Of a stretch of 62,643 nt of DNA, positions 436 through 57,767 are shown piece after piece. Position 1 is the first letter of the stretch; the number at the start of each line of letters is the position of its first letter. The stretch covers positions 1 through 62,643 of the IMG/VR virus record IMGVR_UViG_3300044691_000243; one strand, 5' to 3'. The notes beneath the pieces were generated by a model. That model did no database searches, had not been told where the DNA came from, and saw nothing but the letters and a program-made list of their open reading frames with translations. Source of the DNA: a virus (Duplodnaviria > Caudoviricetes). The translations under genes were made by a program, and so were the position numbers.

Positions 436-687
436 CTAGGGAGTTGGGTTGTTGGGGGGTTTGGGCTGGACGTGGCAGTTCCTGAACAGGGCCAGGAGAT
501 GCAGAAAAGCCTTGGCGCGGCCTTGGGCAACGAGGATTTCGTGCTGCTCGGCGTTTGTTACCGCCACGGTAACATCGGTCGCATAGGCGTCGAAGCACTC
601 GACAAAGGCCTCCCACTCGCGCGGAGCGGCGACCCTGAGTGCCTGGGAATAGACGCGGAGGATGTCAGACGGGGTGGTCGAGCTCAA
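436..687 (-). CDS. Hypothetical protein (head module)
   Basis: 83 aa ORF, 4-nt overlap with upstream gene, operon-like packing. Confidence 0.6.
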   Translation of the reverse strand: MSSTTPSDILRVYSQALRVAAPREWEAFVECFDAYATDVTVAVTNAEQHEILVAQGRAKAFLHLLALFRNCHVQPKPPNNPTP

Positions 688-914
688 GCGATGCCGTTCC
701 CGCTCCAGGAACCAGAACCAAGGCCGTCAGGCGTGGGGGCGGGTCGCTGGGGCTGTGCCATGGGGGTGGCTTTGCCGTAGGACTGAAAGCTCGCCGGGCC
801 GCCGCCAGAGGCTGCGCCGGGGAGGGCACGCTGGGCCGATCCCTTATCGGGAGAGTTGTCCAGGGTACCCTTCTTGGAGTGTGGCTGTAGGGGCGTCATG
901 TGCTTCTTGAACAT
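684..914 (-). CDS. Small Gly/Pro-rich hypothetical protein
   Basis: 76 aa, coupled overlaps on both sides. Confidence 0.55.
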   Translation of the reverse strand: MFKKHMTPLQPHSKKGTLDNSPDKGSAQRALPGAASGGGPASFQSYGKATPMAQPQRPAPTPDGLGSGSWSGNGIA

Positions 915-1132
915 CAGATGCCTCCGATCCGTGACCCACCATCAGTGGGCCCAAAAGGACTTGGCGATGGCGCCGGCGCGGGGAGAGGAGCCGCCGGCTT
1001 GCCGTAGTCGCGGGTGTTCTTGACGCGCGGGGTGGGCGCCTTGCCAGAAGGACCGACAGCCGAAGCTGACCCCGGATTGGGGACAGTCATCGGCGCCGCG
1101 ATCCCGCGTGGCTTGATGGTCTGGCGCTGCAT
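914..1132 (-). CDS. Small Pro-rich hypothetical protein
   Basis: Start reassigned to ATG 1132 (MQRQTIKPRG), just after stop of upstream gene. Confidence 0.5.
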   Translation of the reverse strand: MQRQTIKPRGIAAPMTVPNPGSASAVGPSGKAPTPRVKNTRDYGKPAAPLPAPAPSPSPFGPTDGGSRIGGI

Positions 1133-1133
1133 G

Positions 1134-1448
1134 TTAGCGAGCGCTGGTCTTGCCGGCCTCTGCCGGCTGCGAGCCCGCATACCCGAACATCTTGTTCGTG
1201 CCGCCCTTGGCGAACTTGTCGCCGGTGCCGCCGTCATGCGACCCCTGATCGGTAGTGCCGGCGTCTTTGTGACCCGCTTGTTCCAGCGGCGCGGTAACCG
1301 TACGGTCGCCCTTGCCGAACATCGGGGTGTTGCCGCCCTTGGCAAACGTGGTGTTGTGTTCCGTCTGCTTCATCGTCGAGCCTTCCTTGGGAAGGCCTGC
1401 GGTGCTCTTGCTGACCATGGTCATATGCTCCTGGGGAGAAAAATTCAT
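1134..1448 (-). CDS. Small protein with two FAKGG..MFG repeats (possible internal virion protein)
   Basis: FAKGGNTPMFG and FAKGGTNKMFG; true start may be downstream of 1448. Confidence 0.55.
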   Translation of the reverse strand: MNFSPQEHMTMVSKSTAGLPKEGSTMKQTEHNTTFAKGGNTPMFGKGDRTVTAPLEQAGHKDAGTTDQGSHDGGTGDKFAKGGTNKMFGYAGSQPAEAGKTSAR

Positions 1449-1473
1449 CAGGAGCGAGATAAGGCCGAGGCGC

Positions 1474-1489
1474 TTAAAGACTACTTAAC
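1474..1489. promoter_or_regulatory. CtrA-type box TTAA-N7-TTAAC
   Basis: TTAAAGACTACTTAAC, perfect consensus, just upstream of - strand gene ending at 1448. Confidence 0.6.
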
Positions 1490-2041
1490 GCCGACAACAA
1501 GGACTTCCGGCTTCGGGGTCGAGAGCGCGCAGATAGCCCGGTATCCCTTGATGTGGTCGTATAGATCGCGCTCGATCCCATTTGGCATTTTGTATGGGCA
1601 CGTATCCTCGACGAAATATCGTCCGCCCTCCTTGAGGTAGGGCGCGAGGGTGTTCATGAGCCAAATCTGGGGGGCAGGATCATGCACGGCATCGTCGACG
1701 ATCATGTCAAACTCACCGCCGAACTGCTCCATTGCCTCGTGAAGCTGGGCACCATTGTAGGCATCGCACTGTAGAGTACGAATGCGCTGTTGGTCGTTGA
1801 AGATAAAACGACCGTCGTTGTCGAGGCCATAAATCTCTGCGTGGGGGAAATAGTCACGCCAACAGAAGAGGCTGGCTCCGACGACGTTTCCGGGGATGTC
1901 ACGATAGCCACAAATCCCAATCTCCAGGACCCGTTTTACTTCGAACCGACGCGGACCCATCAGCTTCTCGTAGTATGGGTGATAGCCCCAAATCCCTTTA
2001 TCGGTCCCAAAGCGAGTGAATAGGTTTTCGAGATAGCTCAT
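1481..2041 (-). CDS. Class I SAM-dependent O-methyltransferase (sugar O-methyltransferase-like)
   Basis: GTDK...VLEIGI...GASL..WRDYFP.AEIYGLD...FDMIVDDAVH motifs. Confidence 0.8.
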   Translation of the reverse strand: MSYLENLFTRFGTDKGIWGYHPYYEKLMGPRRFEVKRVLEIGICGYRDIPGNVVGASLFCWRDYFPHAEIYGLDNDGRFIFNDQQRIRTLQCDAYNGAQLHEAMEQFGGEFDMIVDDAVHDPAPQIWLMNTLAPYLKEGGRYFVEDTCPYKMPNGIERDLYDHIKGYRAICALSTPKPEVLVVGVK

Positions 2042-4702: not shown

Positions 4703-4765
4703 TTGCTTTCCTGAGTTGGGGTTCAGGGTTTGCGAACTACCGTGGCGGTAACAATCAAGCAAGCG

Positions 4766-14331: not shown

Positions 14332-15057
14332 TCAGATCGCTGGTAGCGACAGGTTGCCAGACGGTTGAGCAGCTGACGCCGGCGGCGAAGTCGACTGGAC
14401 GACCAGCTTCTGATCTCCGCCAAGGTCGATGTTAATAACGAAGCGTTCTCCAGGAGTGCCCGCCCCAAGTTCGCGCTCACCAACACCGGCGACTTTCGCA
14501 AAGAGCTTAGCAGCCTCCACGACGCCGGTAAGCGGCTCGGATTTGGTCCGCATGCGAGAACCGATATCCAGCAGGCTGTCTTCGAGGATGGCTGCAGCCT
14601 CAACCTTAATCCGTTCCTGCGTGGTGAGAGGCGCGTGCCACTCGATGCAGGCTGCCTGCAAGGCAGCTTTATAAAATTCGTTGTTGGCTTCGAGGAACTC
14701 ATATTGGGGCTCTGTGAGTTTGTATTCCCGGAGGACGCCTGGGCGCTCTTTAATGTCCATCGCGATCTCGCGCGCGAGACGGGCGAGCTCAGACGGCGTC
14801 ATGGCGGGTAGCTGCACAAGGGCCTTGGCGGCCTGAACCCCTTCGGGGGAGAGGCTTGTTACCGTGGCGGTAATTGACGGCTCAGAAGGAGCAGGCGTTG
14901 CTGTGTCGCTCTGCCGCATCGGCGTATGTCCTGCGACACCCCGCTCCATCTCAGCCGTCGTTGGCTCCGGCGGCGCCCAAACCTCGCCGGCCAAGACCGC
15001 GTCAAACCCTGTGTCGACCGGCTCAGTCATAGGGGTCTCAATGTCTCGTGTATCCAA
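14332..15057 (-). CDS. Putative terminase small subunit
   Basis: Helical protein ending GERFVINIDLG, upstream of TerL. Confidence 0.6.
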   Translation of the reverse strand: MDTRDIETPMTEPVDTGFDAVLAGEVWAPPEPTTAEMERGVAGHTPMRQSDTATPAPSEPSITATVTSLSPEGVQAAKALVQLPAMTPSELARLAREIAMDIKERPGVLREYKLTEPQYEFLEANNEFYKAALQAACIEWHAPLTTQERIKVEAAAILEDSLLDIGSRMRTKSEPLTGVVEAAKLFAKVAGVGERELGAGTPGERFVINIDLGGDQKLVVQSTSPPASAAQPSGNLSLPAI

Positions 15058-15184: not shown

Positions 15185-15550
15185 TCAATGGACTTTGTCC
15201 TGGCTGGTGGGGCACTGCATGAGGCGACCCACGATCTCGATCACGGTGTCGGACTGTTTCCGGACCAGGTTCGTGAGCCCGCTGATCGCCTCGTTGATGG
15301 TTTCCTCGGTGACCAGGTCACGATCGTAGGCCGCTTTGATGTTAAGCATCAGCACCAGCTTGGCGGTCTGGCTGTATAGCCCCAGGCAGGAGAGGGCCAT
15401 CTCGCCGAACTCCGCGCGCGTGGCGCCGCGGTCATATAGGTCCATCAACGCCGACGCCGCCCCTGCCTGTATTTCAGCGGTCGCCTTGTCGGCGGGGTTG
15501 GCCTGAAGCAGCGCGATGATCGCGTGCTCGTTGAGGAGCGGGTCACCCAT
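15185..15550 (-). CDS. Hypothetical protein
   Basis: 121 aa helical ORF overlapping upstream gene stop. Confidence 0.6.
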   Translation of the reverse strand: MGDPLLNEHAIIALLQANPADKATAEIQAGAASALMDLYDRGATRAEFGEMALSCLGLYSQTAKLVLMLNIKAAYDRDLVTEETINEAISGLTNLVRKQSDTVIEIVGRLMQCPTSQDKVH

Positions 15551-16091
15551 TGTTCGGCTCCTCGGCGATGAGCAGCTGCACTGCTAGTTCCCGCGAGGCG
15601 GGGGTGATGAGATATCCCATCCCCCACATCGTCTCAATTACAAGACCGAAGGGCTTTAGTTTCTTGCGGAGTTTGCAGATCATGACATCGACCATCTTCT
15701 GGTCGATATCCTCCTTGCCGGACTTCTGCGTGATCACGACGTGGAGCTGTTCTTTGGTGACTTGGTCCCGCCGGAGCATCAACGCGAGCATGCCGGCTTC
15801 GAGCGGCGATGTCTTGAACTTGCGGGCGCAGGCGATCTTGAGGGCTTCCTCCTGTTCGAGTGGCGTGCCGTGGAAGACGACGCGGGAGCTGCGGTTACTC
15901 CCTGGCGGCCAGTCGTCTTTCGGGAGCTCCACGATCATACCCGTCGCAACGGCGTCGCGGAGTAATTCGTAGATGTCGGAGGATGGAAGGCTGGTCGCGC
16001 GGGCGATAGCTCGTATTGGGATGCCTTCGTCGGCTAGGCGGATCGCGATGGCGATACTTGATTGGATTGGCTCGGCCGACTGGGCGTCCAT
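15543..16091 (-). CDS. CtrA-like OmpR/PhoB winged-helix regulator with N-terminal HTH instead of receiver domain
   Basis: KMVDVMICKLRKKL...IETMWGMGY resembles CtrA KIIDVFICKLRKKL...IETVWGRGY; N-term GIPIRAIARATSLPSSDIY HTH. Confidence 0.8.
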   Translation of the reverse strand: MDAQSAEPIQSSIAIAIRLADEGIPIRAIARATSLPSSDIYELLRDAVATGMIVELPKDDWPPGSNRSSRVVFHGTPLEQEEALKIACARKFKTSPLEAGMLALMLRRDQVTKEQLHVVITQKSGKEDIDQKMVDVMICKLRKKLKPFGLVIETMWGMGYLITPASRELAVQLLIAEEPNNG

Positions 16092-16872: not shown

Positions 16873-17415
16873 CTATCCCGTAGCGTGGATTAACTTTTAT
16901 CACCGTAATTTTACTGGCGTGTGAGCAAAATAGCTCAACCAAAATGGTAGTAATTTGTTAGGGTTTCACAGTCGGTGGCCCAGCATCCCCAGACGATTAG
17001 CCGATCGCCTGTCGCCACCCACCGACCTTGAAAGGAGCAGCGCCAGATGGCCCTAGCTCTTGTTATCATCGCTGTCCATATACAACACCGATGGCCCTTC
17101 GTAAAGCCTGACCCTCGATCGGAAGCCTGGATGCGGTCGCATCTCTATCCTCCGTATGATCCCCGGGTGACACCTTGACACGACGCCCAGGGGAGTGGCC
17201 CGCGGGACCGGCACCACCAGCGTATTTTGCCGTCAGCCCCTTAACGAAAAGTTACCGTCACGGTAAACCAAGGCGTACCGCGGACATACCGCGGACAGAC
17301 GCTGGCGCTCCTGGATGGTGCCGCCTGCCTCTCGGCGCGAGCGACGGAGCGCTCTCGGGGCGTAGTCCATATGTGGGCTGTCGGTTGTCCGTGCGGGGAA
17401 TTTCACCTTGGTACC

Positions 17416-35726: not shown

Positions 35727-35792
35727 CACGACGACCACAATCAGCCGACTTACCGCGGCGGTAATTTATCTGTCCCAACATGGAGTTTCACT

Positions 35793-36923: not shown

Positions 36924-39900
36924 GTGACGGACTGGAACGTAGTACAGGCCTTCATGGCCAACATAGTACCTTGGCCGGGGTCCCCACAGGACCCCGGGTA
37001 TGTGAACCTGCACTACTCGATGCCAAACCCGAAGCCGACCCCAACGAAGCCCCTGATCAAGGGCATGGGGTGGCCGTTCAAGACCATTGAGGGTTTCATC
37101 GACCGCGCCTCGTGGGTCACCACGATGCCGGCGAAGTTCAAGGACGTGTGGTTCTGCACGTCGCTTCAGAGCATGGCTAGTGCCAATACCAAGGGCAAGC
37201 CTAAAGCTGTCCGGCTGGCCGCCAATGCTCTCAAGGTAAAAGCGCTCTGGATTGACGCCGACGTCGGTGTGCCAGAGCCCGGCAAGAAGCCGAAGTACCC
37301 CGACATCCAAACCGCGCTGAAGGCGATCCTGCTGTTTGCCAAGACTGTCGGGCTACCTGACCCTAGCGCGGTAGTCTACTCAGGCGGCGGTGTCCACGTC
37401 TACTGGATCAGCAAGGACCCGCTCGACCCCGCGCAGTGGGCGCCTTACGCCGCGGGCTTGAAGAGCCTGCTATTGGGGAACAATGTCCTCTGCGACGCCG
37501 GCCTCACGACCGACATCGCACGCATCCTGCGTGTTCCAGGGACATTCAATCACAAATACGACCCACCTAAGCCCGTCACGCTGGCCCCCATGCCGCTCAA
37601 GCTCTACGACTTCGAGCCACAGCTAGGATTTCTCAAAACCTTCGCAGGTCCGATCGCAGTACAGGGCAACCAAAAACCCCAGCCGGAAATATTCGCGGAA
37701 GGAGCAGACCTTGAGAGCTTCAAGAGACCGCCGGTGTTCAAGCCGGCCCAGCCGGAGCCCGATCTCAATGCCGGCATAGACAAGTTCGACGAGACGTTAC
37801 TGAAGGCCGCGCCCATCTTCAAAGAGTGCGGGTTCTACAAAGAAGCGCTTCTCAAGGGAGGAGCCAACTGCGGCAACGAGTTATGGATGTACTCCGTGCT
37901 CGGCGCGACCTTCATGGAGAACGGGAATGCAATTGCACACGCGATATCGAAAGGGCATGCGACTTATTCCGAGGCTGACACACAGGCGCTCTATGATCGG
38001 AAAGTGGCTGAACGACATGATCGGGGAATTGGATATCCCAGCTGCTCAGCCATTAAGGGGGCTGGCTGCACGGCGTGCGCGGCGTGCCCGCTGTTCACGA
38101 AAGGGAAGTCACCGCTCAGTATAAGGGACAAAATTACCGCCGCGGTAAATCCGACGACCCAAAGCGCCGCCGCGGTGCAGGTCGGCCTGCCGGCTAGTTT
38201 TGACCTGAACGGTGACGGGGTTATCTGCAAAGTCCTGGAGGACGAAGAAGACGGCGATATCACCACTATGATGATCCCGCTGTTCCAGTGCACCATGAGC
38301 GACTTCTGGCTGCAGAAGCACCCAGGCGAACATATAAACTTTACCATGACCGTGGATAAAGGGTGCACCGAGCAGGCAACGGTCGATCTCGGCGAGGTGG
38401 CGGCGCACGGGTTTCCCGGGTACCTCTGCAAGAGGCGGGTGCTGATCACCACCGTTGGCGAGCGTTACCTAAAGGAGTTTTTCTTGAGCATGATCGGTAA
38501 ACTACGCAGCCTTGCTGCTGCACAGACGTCTACGCCGTTCGGGTGGTACTCGCTCAACGGCGCTCGCCGCGGCTTTGTGTTTGGTGGCACAATCCTGATG
38601 GATGACGGCACAGAGCGCCCCTGCGGAGCTATTGACCCGAACATATCGCGCATGTACCAGCCCAAGGGCGATCTCGCGGAGTGGATGAAGGCGGCGAACA
38701 GCACCCTGGACCGCAGGCGACCAGAGTTGACATCAATCATCCTGACCGCGTTCGCTGCGCCCTTGATCTCGTTCACTGACCACAACAGCCTGATGATCTC
38801 GGCCTGCGGCACCGACAGCGGCGCCGGCAAGTCGTCGGCCGCCAAGATCGGCATGTCGGTCTGGGGCGACCCGATCCTGACCAAGGGGACCGAGAGCCAG
38901 ACGGTGAACAACATCACCACCGTGATGAAAACTATCCGCAACCTCCCTTTTTACTGGGACGAAATCACCGCCGAAGCAGAGCGAGAGAAAATCTCCAAGG
39001 TCATGATGGAGGCAGACGGTGGCAAGGAAAAAGGCCGCAACAAGGACGGCACCACCACACAAGCGGCGGGTACGTGGCAGCTGATGCTGAGTTACACCGC
39101 CAACCACAGTCTGAAGGAACATCTCCGTAAGCGGAACAGGGACACCAGCGCGCAGCTCATGCGATGTCTGGAGTGGGAGGTGAAGCGAGTTCAGGGCGGC
39201 ACCGGGCATATGCAGACAGCTGACGCCGATGTGCTGGTCGGACTGACCCGCAACAATTATGGCCTGATGGGTATGGTCTACGCCAAATACCTCGCGCTCA
39301 ACCACGCCCGCATCGCGCACGAGGTTCTCGCCAAGTGCAAGGCAATCCAGACGCTGCTGAAGCCGGGTGACGACGAGCGCCTCTGGACGACGGGGCTCGC
39401 GCTCATGACCCTCGCTGCGAAATACGCCAAGGACTGCGGGCTCAACATCGACCATGCCGAGATCGAGAAGTTCATGTATCAGGTCTACCAAAAAAATCTC
39501 TCTGATAGAGACCAGTTCGCGAGCGGCGGTCACGTTGACAACTCCGAAACCGTGCTGACCCGCTACCTTAGAGAGCGAGAAGCGCAGCAGCGTGTCGTGT
39601 GGACCAACTACATGCACAACAAGCAGGGCAAGCCATCGAAGCCAGTGCTGATCCTCAAGGGACCGATGGAAGCACGTAACAATATTGGCGCCGTCGAGGT
39701 GAGGTTCGCGCAGCAGAACGAGATTTGCGTGATTGCGAAGACTGACTTTGACGCCTACCTGGCCGAATACAAACACTCCGAGACGCAGATTTATGCCGCG
39801 CTCACGACGGTCTACGCCTACGAGAAACAGAAGCTGCAGATTTGCTCCGGGTACGTACAAGACCCCGGCCGGGAAGACTGCATCGTGCTCCACCTCAAGA

Positions 39901-42186: not shown

Positions 42187-42235
42187 TTTGGCTCTCCGAT
42201 TGTTACCGCCACGGTAATTCTGGGCGGGTTAAAAA

Positions 42236-45200: not shown

Positions 45201-47485
45201 GCGATGTCGGCATCTATACGATTACCGCCACGGTAATTTTGCACGTCTTCGTCGCTGCCGCGCAGAAGTCGCTCGGCCTCACGGAATTTCTTGATCTGTC
45301 CTGGTGCCCGCTTGTAGAGGAGGTTTTTTGCTTCACGCGCAAGTAGCCACTCCTTTGGTTTGAAAGTCGGCACCCAGGCGCTGTGCCCCGCCTCCCCCGG
45401 TGCGTATCCCGTTGGGTATGAGTGTCCCTTAATACGGTCTAAAAGGGCGCCGTTGGTCTCTTCTCCAGCGGGAGGGGCGCTTTTCTTGAACCAGTCCGTG
45501 ATCGCTTGGTGGACCTTGGTGCGTTCGGCGGCCTTGGCCTTGGTGTTGGCCGTGACGGGCTCGCCATTCTCCATCGTGAGGCCTTCAACCGGATATCCGC
45601 CTTTCACACCATAATTGCGGTTGCGCAGTTTGGCGGTTGCAGCAGCGACCTGCTCGTCCGGCAGCGCCGCAATCTTATCGGCCTCCGCACCACGGCCAGT
45701 GTCGCGCAATTTCTGCAGGAAGTCCTGTACCGGCTTGCGGTCGAGAGCACGCGCCTTCTTCTGGGGGACCGGGGCGCCATATGGCTTCTTCTTGGAAGCG
45801 CCCTTCAGCCACTGCGTCAACTCGTCGGGGGACACTTCAGTGATGTCGTGCAGACGCGCTAGGCCCTTCTCGTCGGAGAACGCCTTCAGATAGGTGTCAC
45901 GAGCGTCGTCTAGGTCCTTGGCGTTAGCCATGACTTTGTGTTCATCGAACTTGCCAGTGTCAGGGTTACGCTGGTCGACGATGAAGTTCTTGTCGCCGTT
46001 GCGAAGATTATAGACATCAACGTGATCCTTGTCGGCGCCGACGGTCTTTCGGAAGTAGCCGTAGTCAGCGGGCAGGGTGCTGCTCCATGGCTTGCCTTCG
46101 GCATCGGTGCCAGTGCGCTCCGATCCCTTCATGTTCTCGTAGGCAACCTCATGATCGAACAGGCGCTCGCGCGCTTTCTCGTAATTCCCTGCTTCCTTCT
46201 GACCCTCGGTCGGGTTCGGATTGGTCTTGCCCTTGAGCCGGTTCATCACCTCGTCGAGCTTCGGCGGCACCTCGCGCTGAGGCATCGGCGTGGCTTCGTT
46301 CTCGCCAACGGCGACGGGCTCGCCGGTCTTGGGGAAGCCCGCGTCGACTACTGGTTCAGGAGGAGCGGGTGCGCGCGGTTTCAGGCCAAGCGTCGGCTTC
46401 GCAGCGTTAGGGGCGGCCGGCTGCGGTGGAGAAGGCGCTGCCTGGGGAGCTGTCGCAGGTTCTGGCGCCGGCGGATTTGCCGCTTCCATTGCCGCGGCGG
46501 TCGCCGGGTCCATCTGCCCCTGTGTGAGCATATCACCCTGGGAAGGCTCGTAGTTCGCCTGCGCTATCTCGCGCGCTTCTGCCTCGGTGAGGCTTTCTTC
46601 GTGTGCAAATTGCCGCATGGCCTCGGGATCAGATAGCGCCTCGGCATAGCGGGCTTGTTCGGCCGGTGAATTGTATTTGGCATAGACGCGCGAGGAGCGC
46701 ACGCCCGTCGGATTATCCTGAGCACGGCCAATAGTACCCTGGTCGGTTTCTGGCGGCGGCTCAGCAAGGGAAGTCCCTTCTACCGCGGTCATGGGGGTAG
46801 GGTCGTCGACATCGGCGTGCGCCCGCTCTGCAGCGGGGTTGGTGGGCATATTCGGGCGGCCTGGGACCATCCGCTCGGCTGCACCATGAACGGCGCGTGT
46901 CGCGCGATTGCCACCCGGAAACACACCGCCGAACACCATATCAGCGCCGACGCGCTTGGGATCAATACCTTGCCCGGAAGCAGCCTGTTGACCGACGCTG
47001 AATGCGCCCATAACACCGGCATTGACGCCGCGCTGGGCAAGCGTCCCGGCCGGATTACCGACAAACGGAACTAGTTCACCAGCCCAATCGGCGACCGGGT
47101 GCGCTTCGGCGTTGGCTTCCAGCTGGGGACGATCGTCGATCCCTGGGATGAAATCTTTGGCCACGTCCTGGGCTTTGCTTGCAGCGTAGCCTCCGGCGAG
47201 CGCACCAACGGCACCAGCGGCAAGAGAGCCGATCGGTCCCAGCGGGGCGCCATATAGCGCCGCGGCTCCAGCACCGGCCAGCGCGCCGCCGGCCACAGCA
47301 CCTGCCGCGGGGACTATAGCGCTTGCGGTCCTTCTGGCGAACGTCGCGGGGGCACCTTCAGGCGCCGGCTTGTCCGCTAAATACGCATCGGGATTGAAGT
47401 CAGCCAGATACGCGTCCGGATCAAACGAACCACCCGCCGGTTCCGGCGAGCTCGCCAGATACGCGTCTGGGTCGAAGTCGCCCAT
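42236..47485 (-). CDS. Large internal virion/ejection polyvalent protein with inorganic-pyrophosphatase-like (InPase) domain
   Basis: 1749 aa; PTEGQKEAGNY..ENMKGSER.G.D..GKPW...DYGY...GADKDHVDV..FDEHKVM; helical C-terminal region; position after other internal proteins. Confidence 0.75.
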   Translation of the reverse strand: MGDFDPDAYLASSPEPAGGSFDPDAYLADFNPDAYLADKPAPEGAPATFARRTASAIVPAAGAVAGGALAGAGAAALYGAPLGPIGSLAAGAVGALAGGYAASKAQDVAKDFIPGIDDRPQLEANAEAHPVADWAGELVPFVGNPAGTLAQRGVNAGVMGAFSVGQQAASGQGIDPKRVGADMVFGGVFPGGNRATRAVHGAAERMVPGRPNMPTNPAAERAHADVDDPTPMTAVEGTSLAEPPPETDQGTIGRAQDNPTGVRSSRVYAKYNSPAEQARYAEALSDPEAMRQFAHEESLTEAEAREIAQANYEPSQGDMLTQGQMDPATAAAMEAANPPAPEPATAPQAAPSPPQPAAPNAAKPTLGLKPRAPAPPEPVVDAGFPKTGEPVAVGENEATPMPQREVPPKLDEVMNRLKGKTNPNPTEGQKEAGNYEKARERLFDHEVAYENMKGSERTGTDAEGKPWSSTLPADYGYFRKTVGADKDHVDVYNLRNGDKNFIVDQRNPDTGKFDEHKVMANAKDLDDARDTYLKAFSDEKGLARLHDITEVSPDELTQWLKGASKKKPYGAPVPQKKARALDRKPVQDFLQKLRDTGRGAEADKIAALPDEQVAAATAKLRNRNYGVKGGYPVEGLTMENGEPVTANTKAKAAERTKVHQAITDWFKKSAPPAGEETNGALLDRIKGHSYPTGYAPGEAGHSAWVPTFKPKEWLLAREAKNLLYKRAPGQIKKFREAERLLRGSDEDVQNYRGGNRIDADIANSKRSGDKAVGVAENQRANEGGLNTEEDKMAEYLDTKRAPGFDVPNEEAEDMVEPTPVKSREDLKVLPRKTVDASDTSLTKIDTNKISKDEIAKLKERRARAEASKARAKAAAGERPKVEANIPSEERKTNELKKPSIDISDPARLKELIEASNKAAQKKLGMEARSEGERDLEGESVRRRGNLVDLARDMSNHFLTDERASMDVGKIKKDFNRLMQGSYKTLQKLDPTRLVDNMKKTEHGSFHAKNTWLPREDYVRSLDEKLYRVGKVDENYFSAILNKAQKEWKGLDSAAGERIFRARDADSASVDLPGKQAGKTNVESLPPEMKALYDKHLDPVFSNNDQFKNAIRAIDKDKIGPDVPHHVAHIMNGDTSEFNMLREKDDPLEQGHYRGLSTHASAAEERKYVALDRNADRQRFIVEPTDKGYDLWENGKVSHIRDPDFKFEDGKQFTVTAKNGKKIDYTMHQAMAEEKEKNVLIDEKAPKYFKDARFAALVTNAQLGSMARHMAYFNELKNSKKFEDWTTTNKMDKRVTEKGWATTNMPNMDGIYMHPDLKALFDDFAGNPQNTYQKLNAEVTKLIFLSPTAHFFNVLGHFVASRGWDNLSIPKNMAILHDLPFALQSVLRRDRYQRKMNLNGSGTVYGKLITKDMPGQLAKAFGLEIERDPSTWGPIADKLGVPLLDLKNSLYRHSSEAMWAGSDMLMTLRVRELQRKGMPMQEAVINAERDIPNYRTWIKIMGNRFLAEKFFNSAAFAFSRYHSGMIRAYANLVSDMLGKSATAGDRVEAVGKLMAIGLMGMVAYPLMDKLWQKVTGNPNAEASRRGPNTIPSHIAGALNGEEDIMSPVRAAATVSPLLTAGAETFYNRDWRGKDIVKPGDVREGARGHVAGIARAVGEGAEHLARGLVAPYNMYANTAMKAPPGDKGVVGQAKILGRTLRDQTLDIKDVSDKSAKYKRMVPIKTHRDVTQDYKKGGGGPFGGLINSVFGR

Positions 47486-49011
47486 TACTGTGCACCGAGC
47501 TTTTGCATAATTTGCGCGGCGCGCGGGTCATTCGGGTTCGCTTTAGCCCAAGCTGCGGCCTGCTGGTCGTGATCAGATAGCTGCTTGGCGGGCGCCGCCT
47601 GGGCAGGAGCACGCTGTTGGGGCGCCGGAGCTTGTTGTGGCTCTGGTGTGGCCGAAATGATCTGATCCCACATCTTCTGCTGCATCGGGTTCAGGGTGCC
47701 GCCGGTAGCGAGTATCGTGCCGAGAGCCTTCTCCTGCAGCGTGCGCTGGTTACGGGTTCCGATGGCTTCCTGCTGCTGGATATGGGACTGGAGAGCACTT
47801 TTTGCGGCCTCGATGCGGGCTTTGCTAAACGTAGCCGCCGCATTTTCGCGGTGCTTGCCCGTAATATCAGCCGCACCCTCCCGGTGCGTACCGGTCGTAT
47901 CGGCGGCCTGAACCTTGAACGTGCCGCGTTTCTCTTCGACGTCGAGCTTGTTCTGGCGTTCGAGTTCTTTCTCCTCCTGCGCTGCCATCCACTGCTGGCG
48001 CTGGGCATTTTGAGTGATGCCCGGGAAGACTTTCATCGCACGTTGTTCGAGCTCATCACCGTAGCCAGTCTTGTCCTCAGGCGGCGGCTGCTGTTCATCG
48101 CTCCCTGACAGGTTCAAGGTCGATGGCGTCTTGCCGAAATTGGTCTTAGGTTGTGGTTCAGGCAGGACGACGGAGCCCGCCGGCGGACCCTTGTCAGGTA
48201 CGCCAGTGACTTTGGACATCGTAGATTGTGAGAGCCGCTGTAGCGTTGCAGGGACGCTGGCTTGTTGGAGTTTATCCCATTGGCCGTCATTGCCGACGTC
48301 CAGGTATTGTTTGAATTGCTCAGGTGTCAGCTGGATTTGTTGCGGCTGTGCCGTCCCCGGCATTGTCACCGTGGCGGTAACACCGTTCTGAGAGCGACTA
48401 AATCTTACGTTGGACCCATCGGGAATATGCTGTTCGGCCTGGTTCGCGGCATCGATCGCGGCGTTGATATCGGCGGGTTTTTGCGCGGAACCAGTAAGGG
48501 CGGCGTAGGCAAACGACTGCTTAGCCATGAAGGCTTTGCGGTGTGCCTGTAACAATTGCCATTGCTTGGCGACGTCACCAGCTTGGTCGATACCGACAAG
48601 ATTGCGGTCTCCCGGTGCCATCTGCCCTTGAGGGTCAACTTGCTGGCCTACCTGATCGATCGCCTGGAGGGGAGCGGCGTCGGCACCCAGCAGATAGCTG
48701 ACGATGCGCTTCATGTTCCCCGGGACGTCCGCGGGATTTAGATTAGGCGTAAAATGCTGCTGACCACTTGCACCGCCCTGTGGCGAGGCTGGCATGACTG
48801 GCGCGGCTCCGGAGTTATCTTCGCCGGGGATCGCGCCTCCGATCACCGGTGCAGCTCCGGAATTATCCTCTTGCACGCTCTGGTCGCCGGTATCGATCGC
48901 GCCTTCGTTATCAGTGTCCTGATTGCCTCCGGCGTAAGGGCGCCCGTATTGCGACGCGTCGGCGGGACCGCGGCCGGCCTCGATGTCTGTTTGAATGGCG
49001 GCTTGCATCAC
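47485..49011 (-). CDS. Putative internal virion (ejection) protein
   Basis: 508 aa Gln/Ala-rich, coupled to large ejection protein. Confidence 0.6.
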   Translation of the reverse strand: MMQAAIQTDIEAGRGPADASQYGRPYAGGNQDTDNEGAIDTGDQSVQEDNSGAAPVIGGAIPGEDNSGAAPVMPASPQGGASGQQHFTPNLNPADVPGNMKRIVSYLLGADAAPLQAIDQVGQQVDPQGQMAPGDRNLVGIDQAGDVAKQWQLLQAHRKAFMAKQSFAYAALTGSAQKPADINAAIDAANQAEQHIPDGSNVRFSRSQNGVTATVTMPGTAQPQQIQLTPEQFKQYLDVGNDGQWDKLQQASVPATLQRLSQSTMSKVTGVPDKGPPAGSVVLPEPQPKTNFGKTPSTLNLSGSDEQQPPPEDKTGYGDELEQRAMKVFPGITQNAQRQQWMAAQEEKELERQNKLDVEEKRGTFKVQAADTTGTHREGAADITGKHRENAAATFSKARIEAAKSALQSHIQQQEAIGTRNQRTLQEKALGTILATGGTLNPMQQKMWDQIISATPEPQQAPAPQQRAPAQAAPAKQLSDHDQQAAAWAKANPNDPRAAQIMQKLGAQ

Positions 49012-52428: not shown

Positions 52429-55178
52429 GTTTTTGCCAAGGCCTTTACGGAGGTTGCGATCTGCACGTTCGAGATCGGCACGCGGGCCTCAAACTCAAAC
52501 TGCCATGTCTCATACTTGAACCCGGAGAGAATGCGAAGAAGCTCCTGTGGTGAACGTATCTCGCGCACGGTAACCAGGTTCATAGAGTTCGACATCTGGT
52601 CGCCATACCCAGCGAACACGCGCACGAAGCCGTAGCGGTCCGCAGGGAGGCTATTCCAGAACGGATCGGTCGTCGGGTTCTCCGCACGCTTCGCGTTCAG
52701 CGCGGGAGTACCAGGCGGGATCGTGAACCAGATACGCATCACCTCGAAGTTCTTCTTGGCCTTCTGCTGGAACAGCTTCGAGCGCCACTTGTATGTCTGC
52801 ATGACCGAGGCCGGGTCCGTGAAGTCGTAATAGTAGACCGCGTTGTTCTGGATCACGAGGCAGACACTGGACCACGGGTCCAGCCTCACGTTGTCGACAT
52901 TGAAGCCGTTCGGGGCGCTCAGCTGGTTGAAGCCGAGGCGATGCCCACCCGGCTGCGGCCAGATCGAGAACGACTGGCTGTCGGCCGCGTTCAGCTCGAT
53001 GGTGAACCCCCGCTGCGCGACGCTGGTATCGCCGTTGCGGATGCATCCTAGTGCGAAGTAACTGGAGACAAGAAACACACACCGCAGGTTTTTCTGTGGG
53101 GTGAGCTGCTGCCACTTCTCTCGCGTGATCCACAGCTCCGATGTGTTGGTGACCGCGCCGTACTGCGTCACCAAAACTAGCCCGTTAGGGCTGGCGTAGT
53201 AGACGCCGTCGTTGTTGCCCCAGATCGACCCACGCGAGTGGCACGGCTCGCTGGTCTGGACTTTGGTCGCGCTCATCGTGCCCGGAGCTGTGCCAGTCGC
53301 AATGTGCGGGGCGCCGCTCGTGCACGCGACAACGCTGTTGCCCGTGATGCCGAGACCAACAATTGGGTACTCCGTCGTGATGACGTACGAGGGTGGCCAC
53401 GCGTGAGGCCGGTACGGCTCGCAGAACCAAATCTCGTTCGCGCGCCAGCCCACCGCCATGCCGTTGGGCATAGATATAATCCCCTGCAGGTCCTCCGGGG
53501 GAGGGAACCATAGTTGCGACTGGAGCTGCGGGTTGATGACTACCGCGGTGTCGTCGAGCACGTCACTGTAAGTCGCAGTGTGCACATCAAGATCAGTAGG
53601 CTGAACCTGGAAATACGTAGTCGGCCCAGTCTGCGACGTGAGTGACCGGTATAGCCTTATCTTCGTGATGTTGCGCGTGATACCGAGCTGATCTGGCGGC
53701 GGCTGGAACAGCGAGATAGTCCAGGTGCCGTTGCTCCAGCCGGTCACAACAGTCGCCGGGGAAGGGGGGCTCTCTTCGCCATAGGCCGTGATGTACGTGT
53801 AGACGTAGGAGCGAGCCTCCTGTACGGCAGAAGACGTCAGATCGCCCCACAACTGCAGATCGGGGAAGCCCACCTGGAGATTGTTTATCGCCGGCGGCGG
53901 ACCGTTCGAATATGTGTTCAAGGAGACCACGCCGGCGGAGCCGGTCGTATCGGCTTCCTGGATGTTGATCGCCGTGTCGATCATGATGCCGATCCAATAC
54001 TGGACGTTCATCAATAGACCGGTCGGGTTCACGAACGCACTGGAAGCGTTCACGCCCGCAGTCACCCCCGCAACGGGGGCTCCAGCGTTAAGCAGCTGAT
54101 GCGGAGAGCCGTTCAGATCGTTGTAAAGCACCGCCGCGAAGTTCGCGTTCGCGGTAGACTGAGGGAGGAACGTGACGTCGTTCAGGATCATGGCTCCCGC
54201 AGGGGTAACCGGGATCAGATAGATTATATTCGCGCCTGGGTTACCGGTAGCCGAGGTGGACGCGGTGGGAAACCCAAGGGTAACGGCGGACCCGCCACCC
54301 GTGACGGCGACACCCGGCGAGCACCCGGGGGCGGGCACACCGAGGAGCCACGCTGGTTGGGCGGCCTGGATGCGGGCTCGGGTGTTATACTGCGGAGCCA
54401 GACTTGGGCTGGCAAAGTAGAAGCGGTCAAAAGTGTCGTTGACCACTGGAGACCGCATGACATCAGTGTCTGGGTCAGCGAACTCCAGCCAGACAGAAGC
54501 TCCAGTGATGGAGGCATCGAAGGCCAGATTGGTGCCACCTTGGAACGAGCTGGTCGGGGCGCCGTTGTAGCGCCACACGATGCGGGTGCCACCCGTGTTG
54601 TCAGCGACAAGTGTCGTATTAAAGGCAGCTCCGCTGGAGGGAGCGAAGGCCTCGATACGTGGAATATCGGTCGCAAGGATATTCGTCGTGATCGGAGACG
54701 TTTGGTCAATCGCCGGATTAGCGACGGTGCCGACGCCGTAATTGGTTCCTGCATTGGTGCTCTTTCCGTTGTCTGCTGTGAAAGCCTGAAAGAGATTTGT
54801 TACCGCCACGGTAACAGATGCGCCAATCAACACATCGTAAGCGGCGGCGATCACTGTCCGAAACGTGTATACTTCTTCACCCAACGTGATCTGGTCGCCG
54901 TCGAGCGGGATTGATAGCAGGTACGCCGTCGCGTTCGCGATGTTCTGCGTGGTGAGCGGCAGGCGATAGGCGAACTTAGAGGTGTTGCTCTTCAGGTTGA
55001 AGAGCAGCTTCGGGGTGCGCCATCCTGCCAGCCCGCCGCTAAACAGATACCCGTTCAGAGATGACGCAGATTGACCTTGAGGGATGAGGTGGTCATCCCA
55101 TGCCGGCAACATCCCGCCAAACTGCTCCAGCTTGAAGCTGTCTGAAGCTCCCGGGTCCTCTGGTCGTGCTGCAGCCAT
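52425..55178 (-). CDS. Tail tubular/nozzle (stabilisation) protein with inserted domains
   Basis: FGGMLP, RSYVYTY...GEESPPS, W.PPP.DL.G...MPNG, FCEPY.PHAWP, YKWRSK motifs. Confidence 0.8.
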   Translation of the reverse strand: MAAARPEDPGASDSFKLEQFGGMLPAWDDHLIPQGQSASSLNGYLFSGGLAGWRTPKLLFNLKSNTSKFAYRLPLTTQNIANATAYLLSIPLDGDQITLGEEVYTFRTVIAAAYDVLIGASVTVAVTNLFQAFTADNGKSTNAGTNYGVGTVANPAIDQTSPITTNILATDIPRIEAFAPSSGAAFNTTLVADNTGGTRIVWRYNGAPTSSFQGGTNLAFDASITGASVWLEFADPDTDVMRSPVVNDTFDRFYFASPSLAPQYNTRARIQAAQPAWLLGVPAPGCSPGVAVTGGGSAVTLGFPTASTSATGNPGANIIYLIPVTPAGAMILNDVTFLPQSTANANFAAVLYNDLNGSPHQLLNAGAPVAGVTAGVNASSAFVNPTGLLMNVQYWIGIMIDTAINIQEADTTGSAGVVSLNTYSNGPPPAINNLQVGFPDLQLWGDLTSSAVQEARSYVYTYITAYGEESPPSPATVVTGWSNGTWTISLFQPPPDQLGITRNITKIRLYRSLTSQTGPTTYFQVQPTDLDVHTATYSDVLDDTAVVINPQLQSQLWFPPPEDLQGIISMPNGMAVGWRANEIWFCEPYRPHAWPPSYVITTEYPIVGLGITGNSVVACTSGAPHIATGTAPGTMSATKVQTSEPCHSRGSIWGNNDGVYYASPNGLVLVTQYGAVTNTSELWITREKWQQLTPQKNLRCVFLVSSYFALGCIRNGDTSVAQRGFTIELNAADSQSFSIWPQPGGHRLGFNQLSAPNGFNVDNVRLDPWSSVCLVIQNNAVYYYDFTDPASVMQTYKWRSKLFQQKAKKNFEVMRIWFTIPPGTPALNAKRAENPTTDPFWNSLPADRYGFVRVFAGYGDQMSNSMNLVTVREIRSPQELLRILSGFKYETWQFEFEARVPISNVQIATSVKALAKT

Positions 55179-55745: not shown

Positions 55746-55931
55746 TTACCGGCCACGGTTGTGATTGATCTTGGCAGCGGTCTTGACGAGGTTCGCCTGC
55801 TTCGCCGTCTTGCCAGAATGCGGCTTCGCGGCGTAAGCCTCTGTGCTCATGCCGGCCTTCTTGGCCTTCGCCTTAAACTGACCGTGCGAATTGGCGAACG
55901 CTTTTTCCATCCAGTGCGGATCGTTGGCCAT
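55746..55931 (-). CDS. Small basic protein (possible internal DNA-binding)
   Basis: Lys/Ala-rich, HWMEKA...HG.F.AKAK.AGMS. Confidence 0.65.
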   Translation of the reverse strand: MANDPHWMEKAFANSHGQFKAKAKKAGMSTEAYAAKPHSGKTAKQANLVKTAAKINHNRGR

Positions 55932-56161
55932 CAGAGCGTATCCTCCTCAGTCTTAGCACACGAGAATTTGACAGTAACGCGACCTTCGTTCGACGCTATG
56001 AACTCGTCAATACCGTGTTTCGCCTGCGCCCCTTCGGCGGTGTCGAAGTAGTTCATGCAGGCCGCTTCAGTTGGGAACATCGTTTTATTCCGCATGCGAC
56101 CAATTTCATCGGTTGGTTGTCCGTTGACGACAGCGAAAAGGATAGCGATCAACTTGAACAT
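55931..56161 (-). CDS. Small secreted protein
   Basis: MFKLIAILFAVV start after GGAG; F.TEAAC...C motif. Confidence 0.55.
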   Translation of the reverse strand: MFKLIAILFAVVNGQPTDEIGRMRNKTMFPTEAACMNYFDTAEGAQAKHGIDEFIASNEGRVTVKFSCAKTEEDTL

Positions 56162-56162
56162 T

Positions 56163-56606
56163 TTACTCTCCGGCTTTGTTACGGTTGAAGTACATGTGGC
56201 CGACGCTTGCCACGGTTCCGGCCCCGAAAATGCCGGCAAGGATAACGCCAGCCCATGTGCCAACGATGCCAGTAATCTCTGGGGTGAACCCGTACACGCC
56301 GTACAACCACTTACAGACGATGTTGTCCCAGATGACGACCTTCCACTCGTAGACGATCCACGGAGCGGCAAAGCCACCGACAAGCCACATCAGAAACTTG
56401 CTCTGCGATACCGTGCTGAGGAACGCGACACGAACTTGTCCCTCGGCAACGATACCGGTCACCAGTTGCTTCGCCACGTTGACGTCTCCGCCAATACGGG
56501 CAGTCGTGAGCTGAACTTTCGCGTTGTAATAGGCGTTCGTGAAGTTGTTGATCCCGCCCATGATAGCCGGGACAGCCTGAAAGAACGCAAGGATCGCCGT
56601 GATCAT
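56163..56606 (-). CDS. Membrane protein, holin-like
   Basis: Multiple hydrophobic segments; in cluster with lysin. Confidence 0.55.
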   Translation of the reverse strand: MITAILAFFQAVPAIMGGINNFTNAYYNAKVQLTTARIGGDVNVAKQLVTGIVAEGQVRVAFLSTVSQSKFLMWLVGGFAAPWIVYEWKVVIWDNIVCKWLYGVYGFTPEITGIVGTWAGVILAGIFGAGTVASVGHMYFNRNKAGE

Positions 56607-56848
56607 TTGATCGACCCGTCCTCGTGATACTCAGCGTTTCGGCGCCGAAGAAACTCAGAGACCAGCGCGTTCGCGAATATATAGAACTGCAGGAGCCGGT
56701 GATCGCTGATGATCGCCGAAAGGTCGACCTGCTGGAGGGCCGTGTAGACGGCCAGCAGGACATACTGGGCGCGCGCCCATAGGATCACTTCGCTGGAGTG
56801 AAACGTCGAGTGGATGTACGCGTATTCCTGTTTGATCCACGCAATCAC
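56603..56848 (-). CDS. Small membrane protein (lysis cassette)
   Basis: S..ILWAR...EFLRRR pattern; two hydrophobic stretches. Confidence 0.55.
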   Translation of the reverse strand: MIAWIKQEYAYIHSTFHSSEVILWARAQYVLLAVYTALQQVDLSAIISDHRLLQFYIFANALVSEFLRRRNAEYHEDGSIK

Positions 56849-57492
56849 TTGGACACCCTGGTGTGGATGGCGAAGCCGACGATCGCTGCGACAGCCACTA
56901 CTATGACAACAATCGCGACGGTCGTATGGTTGGCGCCTGCAGCATGAGCTGCCGCGCCGGCGGCCCCGGCCGAAGTGACGACGGCTGCCGTCTTCTTGTG
57001 GACCGGATGGACAGCGGGAGCGGGAGCAGGAGCAGCAGGGGTTGCGGTAATGGCAAACCCACCAAACACGCGCTTCTGCGCCTCGATCCAGTCAGCATCG
57101 GGGGCTGGATACGTCTTGCCAGCTTCGTGCCCGGCCTGCGCCTTGAGGAAACCGATCGCCAGCGGACCGCGCCAGAACGCGTCGTTCATGACCGTATCGC
57201 GGGTCATCCCAGGTACGCGCTGTAGAACATAGGCAATATAACTCTCGACGTGATTGTGGCCAGACCAGATCGCGATGGCGTCGGCGAAGCGCTTGTTACG
57301 GTAATTCGGCGAGGTGCGCCAGAGATCGAGCTGCGCGCAGATACCCTGCACATAGGTCGGGAATACCGCGATGTTGTTGCCTTGTCCCAAGCCATCGTGG
57401 AGCGTAACGGTGTCCGTGGAGCCCCACTTCTTGGCGAGTGCGTTGCCCCACATAGCGCCTGGGTTCTTGAAGCGGATCGATGCTGGCTCCAT
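56845..57492 (-). CDS. Lysozyme-like endolysin with C-terminal TM helix
   Basis: SIRFKNPGAM (R.NNPG-like), AVFPT..G, AIAIWS..N...Y; PA linker; C-terminal hydrophobic helix. Confidence 0.65.
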   Translation of the reverse strand: MEPASIRFKNPGAMWGNALAKKWGSTDTVTLHDGLGQGNNIAVFPTYVQGICAQLDLWRTSPNYRNKRFADAIAIWSGHNHVESYIAYVLQRVPGMTRDTVMNDAFWRGPLAIGFLKAQAGHEAGKTYPAPDADWIEAQKRVFGGFAITATPAAPAPAPAVHPVHKKTAAVVTSAGAAGAAAHAAGANHTTVAIVVIVVAVAAIVGFAIHTRVSK

Positions 57493-57506
57493 CGGAGCCT
57501 CCTTGG

Positions 57507-57767
57507 TTATGCGGCCGGTGCGGCGGGGGCAGGGGGCGGATTTACCGCCACGGTAACAGGAGCCGGGACGATCTTACCAATCAGCTCGGCCTCGTATGCC
57601 TTGACCTTGGCAAGCACGCCGGCCTCTACGGCTTTGAGGTTGGCGCGGGTGTGCGCCGGAACGCCGGCGAAAAAGTCCTTGATCTTCTGACTGAAGACGA
57701 GCGTGGCGACGAACACGGCGACATAGCCAGCGAGCGTCAAATCGACGTAGGCGAGGAGGCTGGACAT
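57507..57767 (-). CDS. Small membrane protein
   Basis: N-terminal TM segment. Confidence 0.6.
   Translation of the reverse strand: MSSLLAYVDLTLAGYVAVFVATLVFSQKIKDFFAGVPAHTRANLKAVEAGVLAKVKAYEAELIGKIVPAPVTVAVNPPPAPAAPAA

Follow-up and report, generated by a model that had tools for sequence, protein, structure and literature searches.

A palindrome repeated across the genomes of a phage family and a candidate phage-encoded reader

The 62,643-bp window analysed here is the whole of IMG/VR virus record IMGVR_UViG_3300044691_000243 (Caudoviricetes; estimated completeness 96%), whose source data were four soil-metagenome DNA runs taken as assembled contigs. It carries the 15-bp palindrome TTACCG-N3-CGGTAA many times over, inside genes as well as between them, and the question raised is what reads these sites and for what. 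A reading made from the sequence alone had taken the palindrome for a DNA signal with a symmetric reader acting genome-wide and had attached specific models to it; the core inference was supported, while the specific models held up less well. The explanation we favour, and to which we give about an even chance, is that the palindromes are sites of a phage-encoded, co-evolving symmetric reader, most likely the protein encoded at 21810-22583, working with an ATPase/VWA pair. Genes were called with our own simple codon-usage caller, which gave 82 open reading frames (ORFs); 40 of the 82 were scanned with Pfam (E <= 0.01) and 39 with PHROGs, the remaining ORFs being small. Related genomes are cited by our own handles (G001, G002 and so on).

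Selection on the palindrome as DNA

All 16 perfect and five one-mismatch copies listed in the sequence-only reading were recovered where it had placed them. In 100 dinucleotide-preserving shuffles, perfect copies averaged 0.01 and never exceeded 1, against the 16 observed. Within coding sequences we observed 10 perfect copies, and no more than two arose in any of 500 within-gene synonymous shuffles (0 copies in 419, 1 in 69 and 2 in 12), in which the six perfect intergenic copies were left unchanged.

Pooling the window with eight related records gave nine genomes with 149 perfect copies. The spacer was constrained, as had been suspected, with a pyrimidine (Y) at position 7 in 148/149 copies, G or C (S) at position 8 in 138/149 and a purine (R) at position 9 in 147/149, so that the full motif extends as TTACCG-Y-S-R-CGGTAA and is symmetric through the spacer. 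Among the 149 copies a C before the motif and a G after it were weakly avoided, and there was no information beyond positions -2 to +3 around it. The mismatch series ran from the 149 perfect copies to 39 one-mismatch and 19 two-mismatch sites, the last being about background, and none of the 19 was compensatory. On the sense strand the one-mismatch variants comprised 15 G-U wobble and 23 non-wobble changes, one third wobble being expected, and the central base was C at 93 and G at 77 of 182 oriented sites, which gives no polarity. It appears to be the sequence rather than a structure that is read.

The sites were single, with the closest pair 412 bp apart, and somewhat more evenly spaced than random (coefficient of variation 0.62-0.84 vs 0.94, in genomes that are not mutually independent). 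Thirteen of the window copies lay at 17.2-38.2 kb, spaced 412-2845 bp apart, in agreement with the earlier placement of 13 in the early arm. About 12 copies had been placed within unrelated coding sequences; the number was close, with 13 of 21 in ORFs (one of them a doubtful 39-aa ORF) and 8 between, but two of these, at 24492 and 28052, occupy the homologous position of paralogous HNH genes and so are not in unrelated genes. Across the pooled set 129/188 sites were in ORFs, while the 59/188 between genes compare with about 19 expected (three-fold enrichment, P = 3e-15). The placement at stop codons was also confirmed: the copy at 31085 directly follows a TAA, that at 19339 starts 1 nt after a stop, and at 33545 and 27014 the final TAA of the motif serves as the stop of an ORF. 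The motif strings were absent from the main texts of the literature searched, in which TTACCG and CGGTAA gave only unrelated primer matches.

Conservation was seen throughout the eight relatives, which are complete or near-complete metagenomic records, with G001 incomplete. Perfect copies numbered 12 in G001, 18 in G002, 21 in G003, 19 in G004, 17 in G005, 12 in G006, 18 in G008 and 16 in G009; a reversed-pattern control gave 0 in each of the eight, and an unrelated record held 1 perfect copy. Sites were projected to window coordinates through protein alignments (site counts out of nine below refer to the window and these eight relatives), and 14 window positions proved to be occupied in 5-9 of the nine genomes, with the motif standing as an island in diverged flanks. 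Among codons with a conserved amino acid, to which the synonymous-site test was restricted, the third base was invariant at 23/25 positions inside the motif vs 26/80 in the flanks (Fisher P = 1e-7). Orthologous conservation and synonymous-site invariance thus bear out the proposal that selection acts on the DNA and not on the protein, and with the half-site switches in sister lineages described below they point to a symmetric, sequence-specific factor that would act genome-wide.

The in-gene copies were mostly read in frame 1, giving V/I-T-A/V-T/A-V-T, and this imprinted peptide fell in otherwise variable linkers of unrelated proteins, including the primase-helicase, a tail protein and small ORFs, where the DNA motif dictates the peptide. 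Y-R-Y-G-K in the DNA polymerase owes its conservation to the protein; it is encoded by the motif in seven genomes, and G008 and G413 keep it with other codons and without a site. The commonest 15-mer was found in at least 114 IMG/VR stretches, and among these all with two or more copies belong to this phage family.

Lineage switches, losses and a co-inherited gene block

A portal-anchored scan identified 445 IMG/VR contigs of this family, 80 of which were retrieved. One of them, G413, carried 18 copies of TTACGG-N3-CCGTAA and none of TTACCG-N3-CGGTAA, and was placed inside the TTACCG clade as sister of G003 (portal maximum-likelihood tree, support 98/96). At the three orthologous in-gene sites examined, G413 had the switched motif together with a Thr-rich hexapeptide (V-T-V-A-V-T, V-T-A-T-V-T and L-T-A-T-V-S); at the 558 site the peptide was identical and TTACGG was reached by two paired synonymous changes. 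Such a concerted, genome-wide change, one base pair in each half-site, would be predicted if a single trans-acting reader had altered its specificity. G414 carried nine copies of GTTACA-N5-TGTAAC, six of them TTACAG-N3-CTGTAA. The TTACCG-N3-CGGTAA form was found 10 times in G419 and 9 times in G420, with looser spacers, while G421 had TTACCG arms at two spacings (12 with N3, 7 with N2) and G422 had nine TACCG-N3-CGGTA and three GTTACCG-N4-CGGTAAC.

Cultured relatives are limited to four Rhizobium phages that make up the RHph_TM27 group (RHph_TM27A, TM27B, TM29 and TM3_14A, with Rhizobium phaseoli/etli hosts), at a protein identity of 30-55%. RHph_TM27A carried 26 copies of TTACC-N6-GGTAA and 8 of TTACC-N5-GGTAA (34 sites; consensus GTTACCT-N4-AGGTAAC), one of which lies 4 nt before the start of gp045 and another within that gene. 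In its GenBank record (our L119, MN988461.1) the primase-helicase homologue at 42248-45331 is labelled 'putative integrase', and an attL is marked at 24636-24649, inside gp045, which encodes a protein with two helix-turn-helix (HTH) motifs. The homology found is to phrog primase/helicase, which suggests that both labels are wrong. In the accessible portions of the literature naming RHph phages the repeats of the RHph_TM27 group are not discussed; PMC12686479 deals with another phage, RHph_TM30.

The dispersed palindrome was absent from four complete records (G415, G416, G417 and G418), which at orthologous positions had neither the site nor the imprinted peptide, as in relaxation after loss. 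G418 was sister to the palindrome-bearing G419/G420 (support 97/92) and G415-G417 were elsewhere on the portal tree; from these separate places we infer at least two joint losses of the palindrome and the gene block described next. No repeated palindrome was found in the 42 kb of Pseudomonas phage Rollin, a control related through the primase only. Some relatives had apparent ACCGG-N5-CCGGT palindromes, which we discarded because collagen-like Gly-X-Y repeats of the tail-fibre genes produce them artificially; such repeats in the tail-fibre regions of L200, L212, L220, L221 and G415-G417 gave both spurious palindromes and high-count k-mers. The top k-mers of G415-G417 were likewise set aside as collagen-like or tandem repeats, G417 ending in a 15-bp tandem array.

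When the presence or absence of every window gene was tabulated for 20 genomes (16 palindrome-bearing and the four palindrome-free), with profile searches for the block, one block at 21.8-27.8 kb stood out. Three plus-strand genes were present in 16/16 palindrome-bearing and 0/4 palindrome-free genomes: the candidate reader, an all-helical protein (21810..22583); an AAA+-type ATPase (23102..24250; phrog_1297, E 7e-30) with Walker A GSGMGKS and Walker B LLIDEYG; and a DUF2201 protein, a putative metallopeptidase with a VWA-like domain (25524..26801; PF13203 1.3e-18, PF09967 7.3e-18). In RHph_TM27A (MN988461) the three correspond to gp028 (18372-19100), the ATPase at 26629-27735 and the DUF2201 protein at 28817-30100. 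A 190-aa protein of the same block and strand (27243..27815) was present in 15/16, RHph_TM27A being the exception, and again in 0/4.

Otherwise invariant residues that had changed in G413 numbered 15/62 in the 21810 protein, 8/134 in the ATPase and 16/159 in the DUF2201 protein, compared with 15/417 in the portal and 0/33 in the regulator at 15543-16091. Among the three co-inherited proteins, the 21810 protein is the one with the surplus of changes that a re-tuned reader should show. Its changes in G413 clustered at residues 34-56, and its structure model (predicted local distance difference test score, pLDDT, 80) has a helix at 17-30, a Gly-rich turn and a helix at 37-50 opened by D-T-Q. Residues 37-38 were T/A/V-Q with half-site TTAC-CG in the nine clade genomes, G419-G422 and 19 further loci, including homologues only 35-42% identical to the G413 protein; they were V-L with half-site TTAC-GG in G413, and S-L in G414 and RHph_TM27A, with half-sites TTAC-AG and TTACC-T.

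The 21810 protein had no match in Pfam, PHROGs, NCBIfam, PADLOC or the Protein Data Bank (PDB), and the 110 homologues found were all without a name. The top nine Foldseek matches of its model were sigma factors, all weak (E 0.06-0.9, template-modelling score, TM, 0.12-0.14), and no signs of sigma-70 were seen in Pfam, in PDB profiles or in VIA-align, which returned helical hairpins only. Protein Atlas gave only unnamed viral clusters, with weak leads to DUF3102 for 21810-22583 (0.84) and to Pam3_Gp34 for 35793-36920. None of the eight module proteins tested matched NCBIfam or PADLOC, PDB sequence searches with the ATPase and the DUF2201 protein returned nothing usable, and no functional data on DUF2201 were found in the accessible portions of the literature.

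Two other binders had been put forward by the sequence-only reading. The minus-strand gene at 15543..16091, the sole recognisable regulator in the window, encodes an HTH protein with an OmpR-type winged helix (PF00486 1.7e-8) with fold matches to the DNA-binding domains of NsrR, ArlR and ToxR; we rejected it as the palindrome reader because it is kept in all four palindrome-free genomes and is unchanged at its 33 invariant residues in G413. A homodimer prediction for it (score 0.15, mark 0.42) gave no evidence either way. The other, 40338-40622, fell within an ORF without a family match and without wide conservation.

Several roles were tried and rejected for the palindrome itself. As a promoter it lacks a fixed -10 or -35 partner and its surroundings carry no information, promoter-like matches numbered 8 vs 9.1 in shuffles, and intergenic copies lie only about 17-35 nt before start codons. 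As a terminator it has one copy only, at 27014, that adjoins a strong terminator. Mobile or interspersed repeats, such as repetitive extragenic palindromes or bacterial interspersed mosaic elements (REP/BIME) or miniature inverted-repeat transposable elements (MITE), do not fit 129/188 copies in ORFs and the lack of information beyond -2 to +3.

A phage-encoded reader, its rivals and known systems

In the explanation we favour, the 21810-22583 protein would bind the duplex palindrome as a dimer through an N-terminal helix-turn-helix-like element, and some 15-25 single, well-separated, high-affinity sites would mark the phage chromosome as a genome-wide nucleoprotein system. The AAA+ ATPase (23102-24250) and the VWA/metallopeptidase (25524-26801) may assemble, remodel or remove complexes at the sites, and the system would organise or gate DNA transactions, through a transcription/replication roadblock, compaction, or loading of replication or packaging factors. 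That a phage-encoded trans-acting reader exists we consider probable. Its identification with the 21810-22583 protein is tentative, falling somewhat short of an even chance, and an architectural or gating role rather than promoter control is more tentative again; such a role seems likelier than promoter control or immunity given that most sites are far from promoter-like positions and that there is no sign of lysogeny. A wider proposal, which we hold to be doubtful, is a phage chromosome-marking system in which new helical dimeric readers sit on about 20 palindromes and the ATPase and VWA/metalloprotease load, remodel or clear them, as an analogue of centromere or insulator-like organisers gating replication, transcription or packaging. 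Reader and sites would then re-tune together, yielding private 'address codes' (TTACCG, TTACGG, TTACAG and TTACCT) in sister phages that might keep co-infecting relatives off each other's machinery.

A number of observations weigh against this explanation. The link between 21810-22583 and the sites is a correlation, and the phyletic pattern amounts to about two independent losses, taken from a portal tree in mosaic phages. Most of that pattern is shared by 27243-27815, 24865-25062 and 25091-25279, and raised change in G413 was also seen for 27243-27815 (3/12) and 24865-25062 (4/13). The mapping from residues to bases is not one to one, S-L pairing with two half-sites, and the 19 further loci are not an unbiased sample because one of the two search peptides contained D-T-Q. 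The 21810 model matched no known DNA-binding fold in Foldseek or VIA-align. The main internal evidence against a rigid duplex dimer is the occurrence of two spacings in RHph_TM27A (N6 and N5), G421 (N3 and N2) and G422 (N3 and N4), which such a dimer would tolerate poorly and which a hairpin or a flexibly linked reader would fit better; it keeps the hairpin and enzyme-substrate accounts below alive. A host factor is also a possible reader, and the gene calls come from our simple caller.

The two spacings could be accommodated by single-stranded hairpins, in mRNA or unwound DNA, that a phage protein would read for intercistronic processing or stability or for priming or loading by the primase-helicase, an account we consider unlikely. 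Its two loop lengths in some genomes go with intergenic copies lying between a stop and the next ribosome-binding site, 5-35 nt before a start codon, with one copy directly before a terminator, with arms that stay complementary through the lineage switches and with the higher density of sites in the replication arm. The RNA hairpin itself is weak, however (about -5 kcal/mol for a 6-bp stem and 3-nt loop, with no Rfam family match), two thirds of the copies are within genes, and the stem is invariant and does not covary within a genome (0/19 two-mismatch sites compensatory). Nor is G-U wobble enriched on the sense strand (15 vs 23, one third being expected), and positions 7 and 9 keep their Y/R class symmetry without complementarity, which fits duplex reading and not loop closure. 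The sites could instead be substrates of a modifying or cutting activity (nicking, base modification or helicase loading) of the ATPase/VWA/metallopeptidase block or the replication genes, and their near-absolute exactness (149 perfect vs 39 one-mismatch copies) is of the kind typically seen at sites recognised by enzymes. The co-inherited genes showed no nuclease, methyltransferase or glycosylase domain with Pfam, NCBIfam or PADLOC, and symmetric nicking would fragment the genome. The HNH genes are sporadic and not co-inherited, and the exonuclease at 13019-14140 is missing in the complete palindrome-bearing G419, G422 and RHph_TM27A and was not found in the incomplete G001. Single sites never less than 412 bp apart and somewhat evenly spaced (coefficient of variation 0.62-0.84 vs 0.94), an ATPase co-inherited with them, and the neighbouring MazZ-like domain and nucleoside 2-deoxyribosyltransferase-like protein, suggestive of nucleotide-pool manipulation, agree with an enzyme substrate, which on the whole we find rather improbable.

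If the reader were a host protein (a nucleoid-associated protein or a regulator, for instance), lineage differences would reflect different hosts, half-site variants could track host switches, and the three co-inherited genes might do no more than depend on that protein or counteract it. The four relatives without sites have also lost the phage gene block, however, and G413 has switched all its sites while nested in the TTACCG clade. We sampled 401 genomes of one class, that of a Caulobacteraceae metagenome-assembled genome (MAG) holding a related phage contig, and found no enrichment of the motif (49 genomes with a match, maximum 2 per genome), with the reversed control as frequent or more so and spacers random; the test is a partial one, limited to that class. 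The confinement of multi-copy stretches to this phage family, among the at least 114 IMG/VR stretches with the commonest 15-mer, also tells against a host reader, and we regard one as highly improbable. We give least credence to the sites as immunity operators, of stoperator or phiC31-CIR (conserved inverted repeat) type, through which a temperate phage would silence its prophage. The L5-like stoperators named in the sequence-only reading do not fit either: the sites are symmetric and unoriented to transcription (central C 93, G 77), no integrase, partition protein or CI-like repressor was seen in the 40 Pfam-scanned and 39 PHROGs-scanned ORFs, and a portal search across 185,579 prokaryote species, each represented by one genome, matched only 3 MAG contigs and no integrated prophage. 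What remains in favour is the presence of many dispersed near-identical sites within and between genes, as in those systems, and the accessible text of PMC4351075 also draws the stoperator comparison for dispersed repeats.

A further comparison is with ParB/parS or KorB/OB systems, in which a dimer binds palindromic sites with a nucleotide-dependent step; here the sites are palindromic and an ATPase is co-inherited. The KorB operators (OB) of the IncP plasmid RK2 are 13-bp palindromes with a central S, about 12 copies over 60 kb with some far from promoters, and their dimeric ParB-family reader needs a nucleotide-driven step and a partner protein. In the window no ParBc match came up among the 40 Pfam-scanned ORFs, and this replicon is a phage with no sign of plasmid maintenance. 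The stoperators of L5 (Cluster A) are two to three dozen near-identical sites in and between genes at which one phage protein blocks elongation; they are asymmetric, oriented with transcription and part of temperate-phage immunity, whereas the sites here are symmetric and unoriented and lysogeny has left no sign. Papillomavirus E2 sites (ACCG-N4-CGGT), in multiple copies that include coding regions, are read by a dimeric viral protein that links the genome to the helicase and other machinery. The ACCG/CGGT core is the same, but the spacer is 4 vs 3, the E2 beta-barrel differs from the all-helical candidate and the virus is eukaryotic, so the parallel is one of analogy only. The phiC31 CIRs and the P1 C1 operators are further functional analogies.

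The closest described case is the 17-bp dyad repeat of Cluster O mycobacteriophages, as an analogue with no homology implied. In Corndog and its relatives it reads 5'-TGTTCGG-N3-CCGAACA (7 + 3 + 7 bp), according to the accessible text of PMC4351075. From that text and the accessible text of PMC6439249, there are 34 copies in Corndog and about 30 per 60-70 kb genome, with invariant arms; one third or more are in coding regions, unoriented to transcription; the phages have no integrase, form no stable lysogens and are not obviously temperate; and the repeat is predicted to bind a dimeric protein, its role being left unexplained. Shared with these accounts are the inverted arms, here of six fixed bases and one Y/R position, the 3-bp spacer and the tens of dispersed, unoriented copies, partly in genes. 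The sequence and the host phylum are different, and two thirds of the copies here are in genes vs one third there. In the accessible parts of PMC4351075 no reader is proposed and no co-inherited genes, orthologous in-gene conservation or lineage switches are reported; conservation and switches would not have been visible there, the five genomes being too similar.

Dispersed dyad repeats had already been noted in non-temperate Cluster O phages, without a handle on mechanism. The present case supplies several: a 445-contig family, DNA-level selection shaping protein, natural switches, natural losses, three co-inherited genes, one named candidate reader with two candidate specificity residues, and four cultured Rhizobium phages (the RHph_TM27 group, 34 sites). 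Should the favoured explanation be true, it would define a new DNA-binding protein family and assign a role to the AAA+ ATPase and DUF2201/VWA protein pair that is widespread in phages.

Individual sites and their genomic setting

The window is organised in three arms: leftward at 1-16.1 kb, rightward early/replication at about 19-40 kb and leftward virion at 40.5-62.6 kb. Family scans placed the portal (8440-10770), large terminase (11155-12615), an exonuclease-like gene (13019-14140) and tail-fibre-like genes in the first arm. They found no RNA polymerase gene in the window, a transfer RNA (tRNA) scan gave 0 genes and Rfam gave 0 matches. A 464-aa virion-arm ORF (6779-8173), whose sole family match is a PHROG of unknown function, had no homologue in the other 14 genomes compared and is probably a recent acquisition.

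The perfect copy at 558..572, in a minus-strand ORF (436-687), encodes V-T-V-A-V-T and has an orthologous copy in 8/9 genomes. At 4737..4751 a one-mismatch copy lies at a gene junction, 14 nt after a stop, and G002 has a perfect copy at the same place. The perfect copy at 14859..14873 (minus-strand ORF 14332-15030; I-T-A-T-V-T) was found in 5/9 and in its TTACGG version in G413. G002 shares the flanks of the perfect copy at 17252..17266, within the long non-coding gap 16795-17577, and also has the perfect copy at 19339..19353, 1 nt after a stop codon.

The early arm runs from the ATPase (23102-24250) through two HNH genes, the DUF2201 metallopeptidase/VWA gene (25524-26801) and DNA polymerase I (28247-30196) to nucleoside-2-deoxyribosyltransferase-like, MazZ-like, exonuclease and VRR-NUC-like genes, an SNF2 helicase (33704-35251) and the primase-helicase (36924-40118). 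A perfect intergenic copy at 21647..21661 lies 148 nt upstream of 21810-22583. A second palindrome, TTTGCCCGACG(Y)GGCAAA, was observed in this early region at 18770-18787, 21741-21758 and 23053-23070, with two copies bracketing the 21810-23040 unit; a role as early operator or bidirectional terminator is possible, and among the relatives it was found once in G002 and in no other genome.

Each of the two paralogous HNH genes (24259-24723 and 27822-28259; 73% nucleotide identity over 165 nt) carries a perfect palindrome in its N-Y-R-x-G-N codons, at 24492..24506 (N-Y-R-H-G-N) and at 28052..28066 (N-Y-R-R-G-N), the latter in the window only. The arrangement at 24259-24723 is common to G009 only, and in seven relatives without this gene the copy is intergenic and closely follows the ATPase gene. 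The perfect copy at 27014..27028, found in 6/9, is directly upstream of a strong intrinsic terminator hairpin (27034-27058). With its T-run this terminator spans 27034-27068, starting 5 nt after the palindrome; it is the sole strong one found in 16-36 kb (11-bp stem with 8 GC pairs), and in G002 and G001 the orthologous copy is likewise followed by a similar hairpin.

Two copies are in the DNA polymerase gene, a one-mismatch copy at 28464..28478, with the same variant in 3 genomes, and a perfect one at 29881..29895 (Y-R-Y-G-K; 7/9, with identical spacer CTA). Orthologous junctions were occupied in 9/9 genomes for the perfect copies at 31085..31099, right after the stop of 30620-31084, and at 35750..35764, between 35295-35726 and 35793-36920. 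The nucleoside 2-deoxyribosyltransferase-like gene (30199-30630) adjoins 30620-31084, which has an N-terminal dATP/dGTP diphosphohydrolase domain (MazZ-like, PF18909); the pair hints at nucleotide-pool manipulation or modified DNA, and no PurZ-like gene was seen among the window ORFs scanned. A one-mismatch copy at 32931..32945 (ORF 32717-33004; V-T-A-T-V-T) was found in 5/9. At 33545..33559 the one-mismatch TTACTG form, the same variant in 7/9, writes the last codons L-L-R-R-stop of ORF 33302-33559, and its mismatch is attributable to coding, as it falls in a Leu codon. This 85-aa ORF, which overlaps the end of the VRR-NUC-like ORF call and was missed by our caller, has a conserved C-terminus I-N-E-L-L-R-R-stop written by the palindrome itself. 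The perfect copy at 38134..38148 (I-T-A-A-V) falls in the variable linker of the primase-helicase gene and was found in 8/9, with the TTACGG version in G413.

The virion arm contains internal virion proteins and tail fibres. A perfect copy at 42203..42217, found in 7/9, lies between the stop of 42236-47485 and the start of 41896-42186, both on the minus strand. The former, the sole giant gene (1749 aa), matches internal virion, lytic-transglycosylase-type families and not a giant virion RNA polymerase of the N4 type; it carries the perfect copy at 45222..45236 (N-Y-R-G-G-N; 5/9). The one-mismatch copy at 48366..48380 (minus-strand ORF 47485-49008; V-T-A-T-V-T) was found in 9/9 with strongly diverged flanks, and near the perfect copy at 54800..54814 (minus-strand ORF 52425-55178) 7/9 genomes carry a copy no more than about 50 nt away, in one or other of two adjacent positions. 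The last perfect copy, at 57542..57556 in or near a small minus-strand ORF (57507-57767), is common to G002. At 57781-58080 the arm encodes a homologue of the fibre-tail adaptor gp77 of podophage GP4 (PF23148, E 1.9e-11), which together with the large internal virion proteins suggests that the phage is a podovirus.

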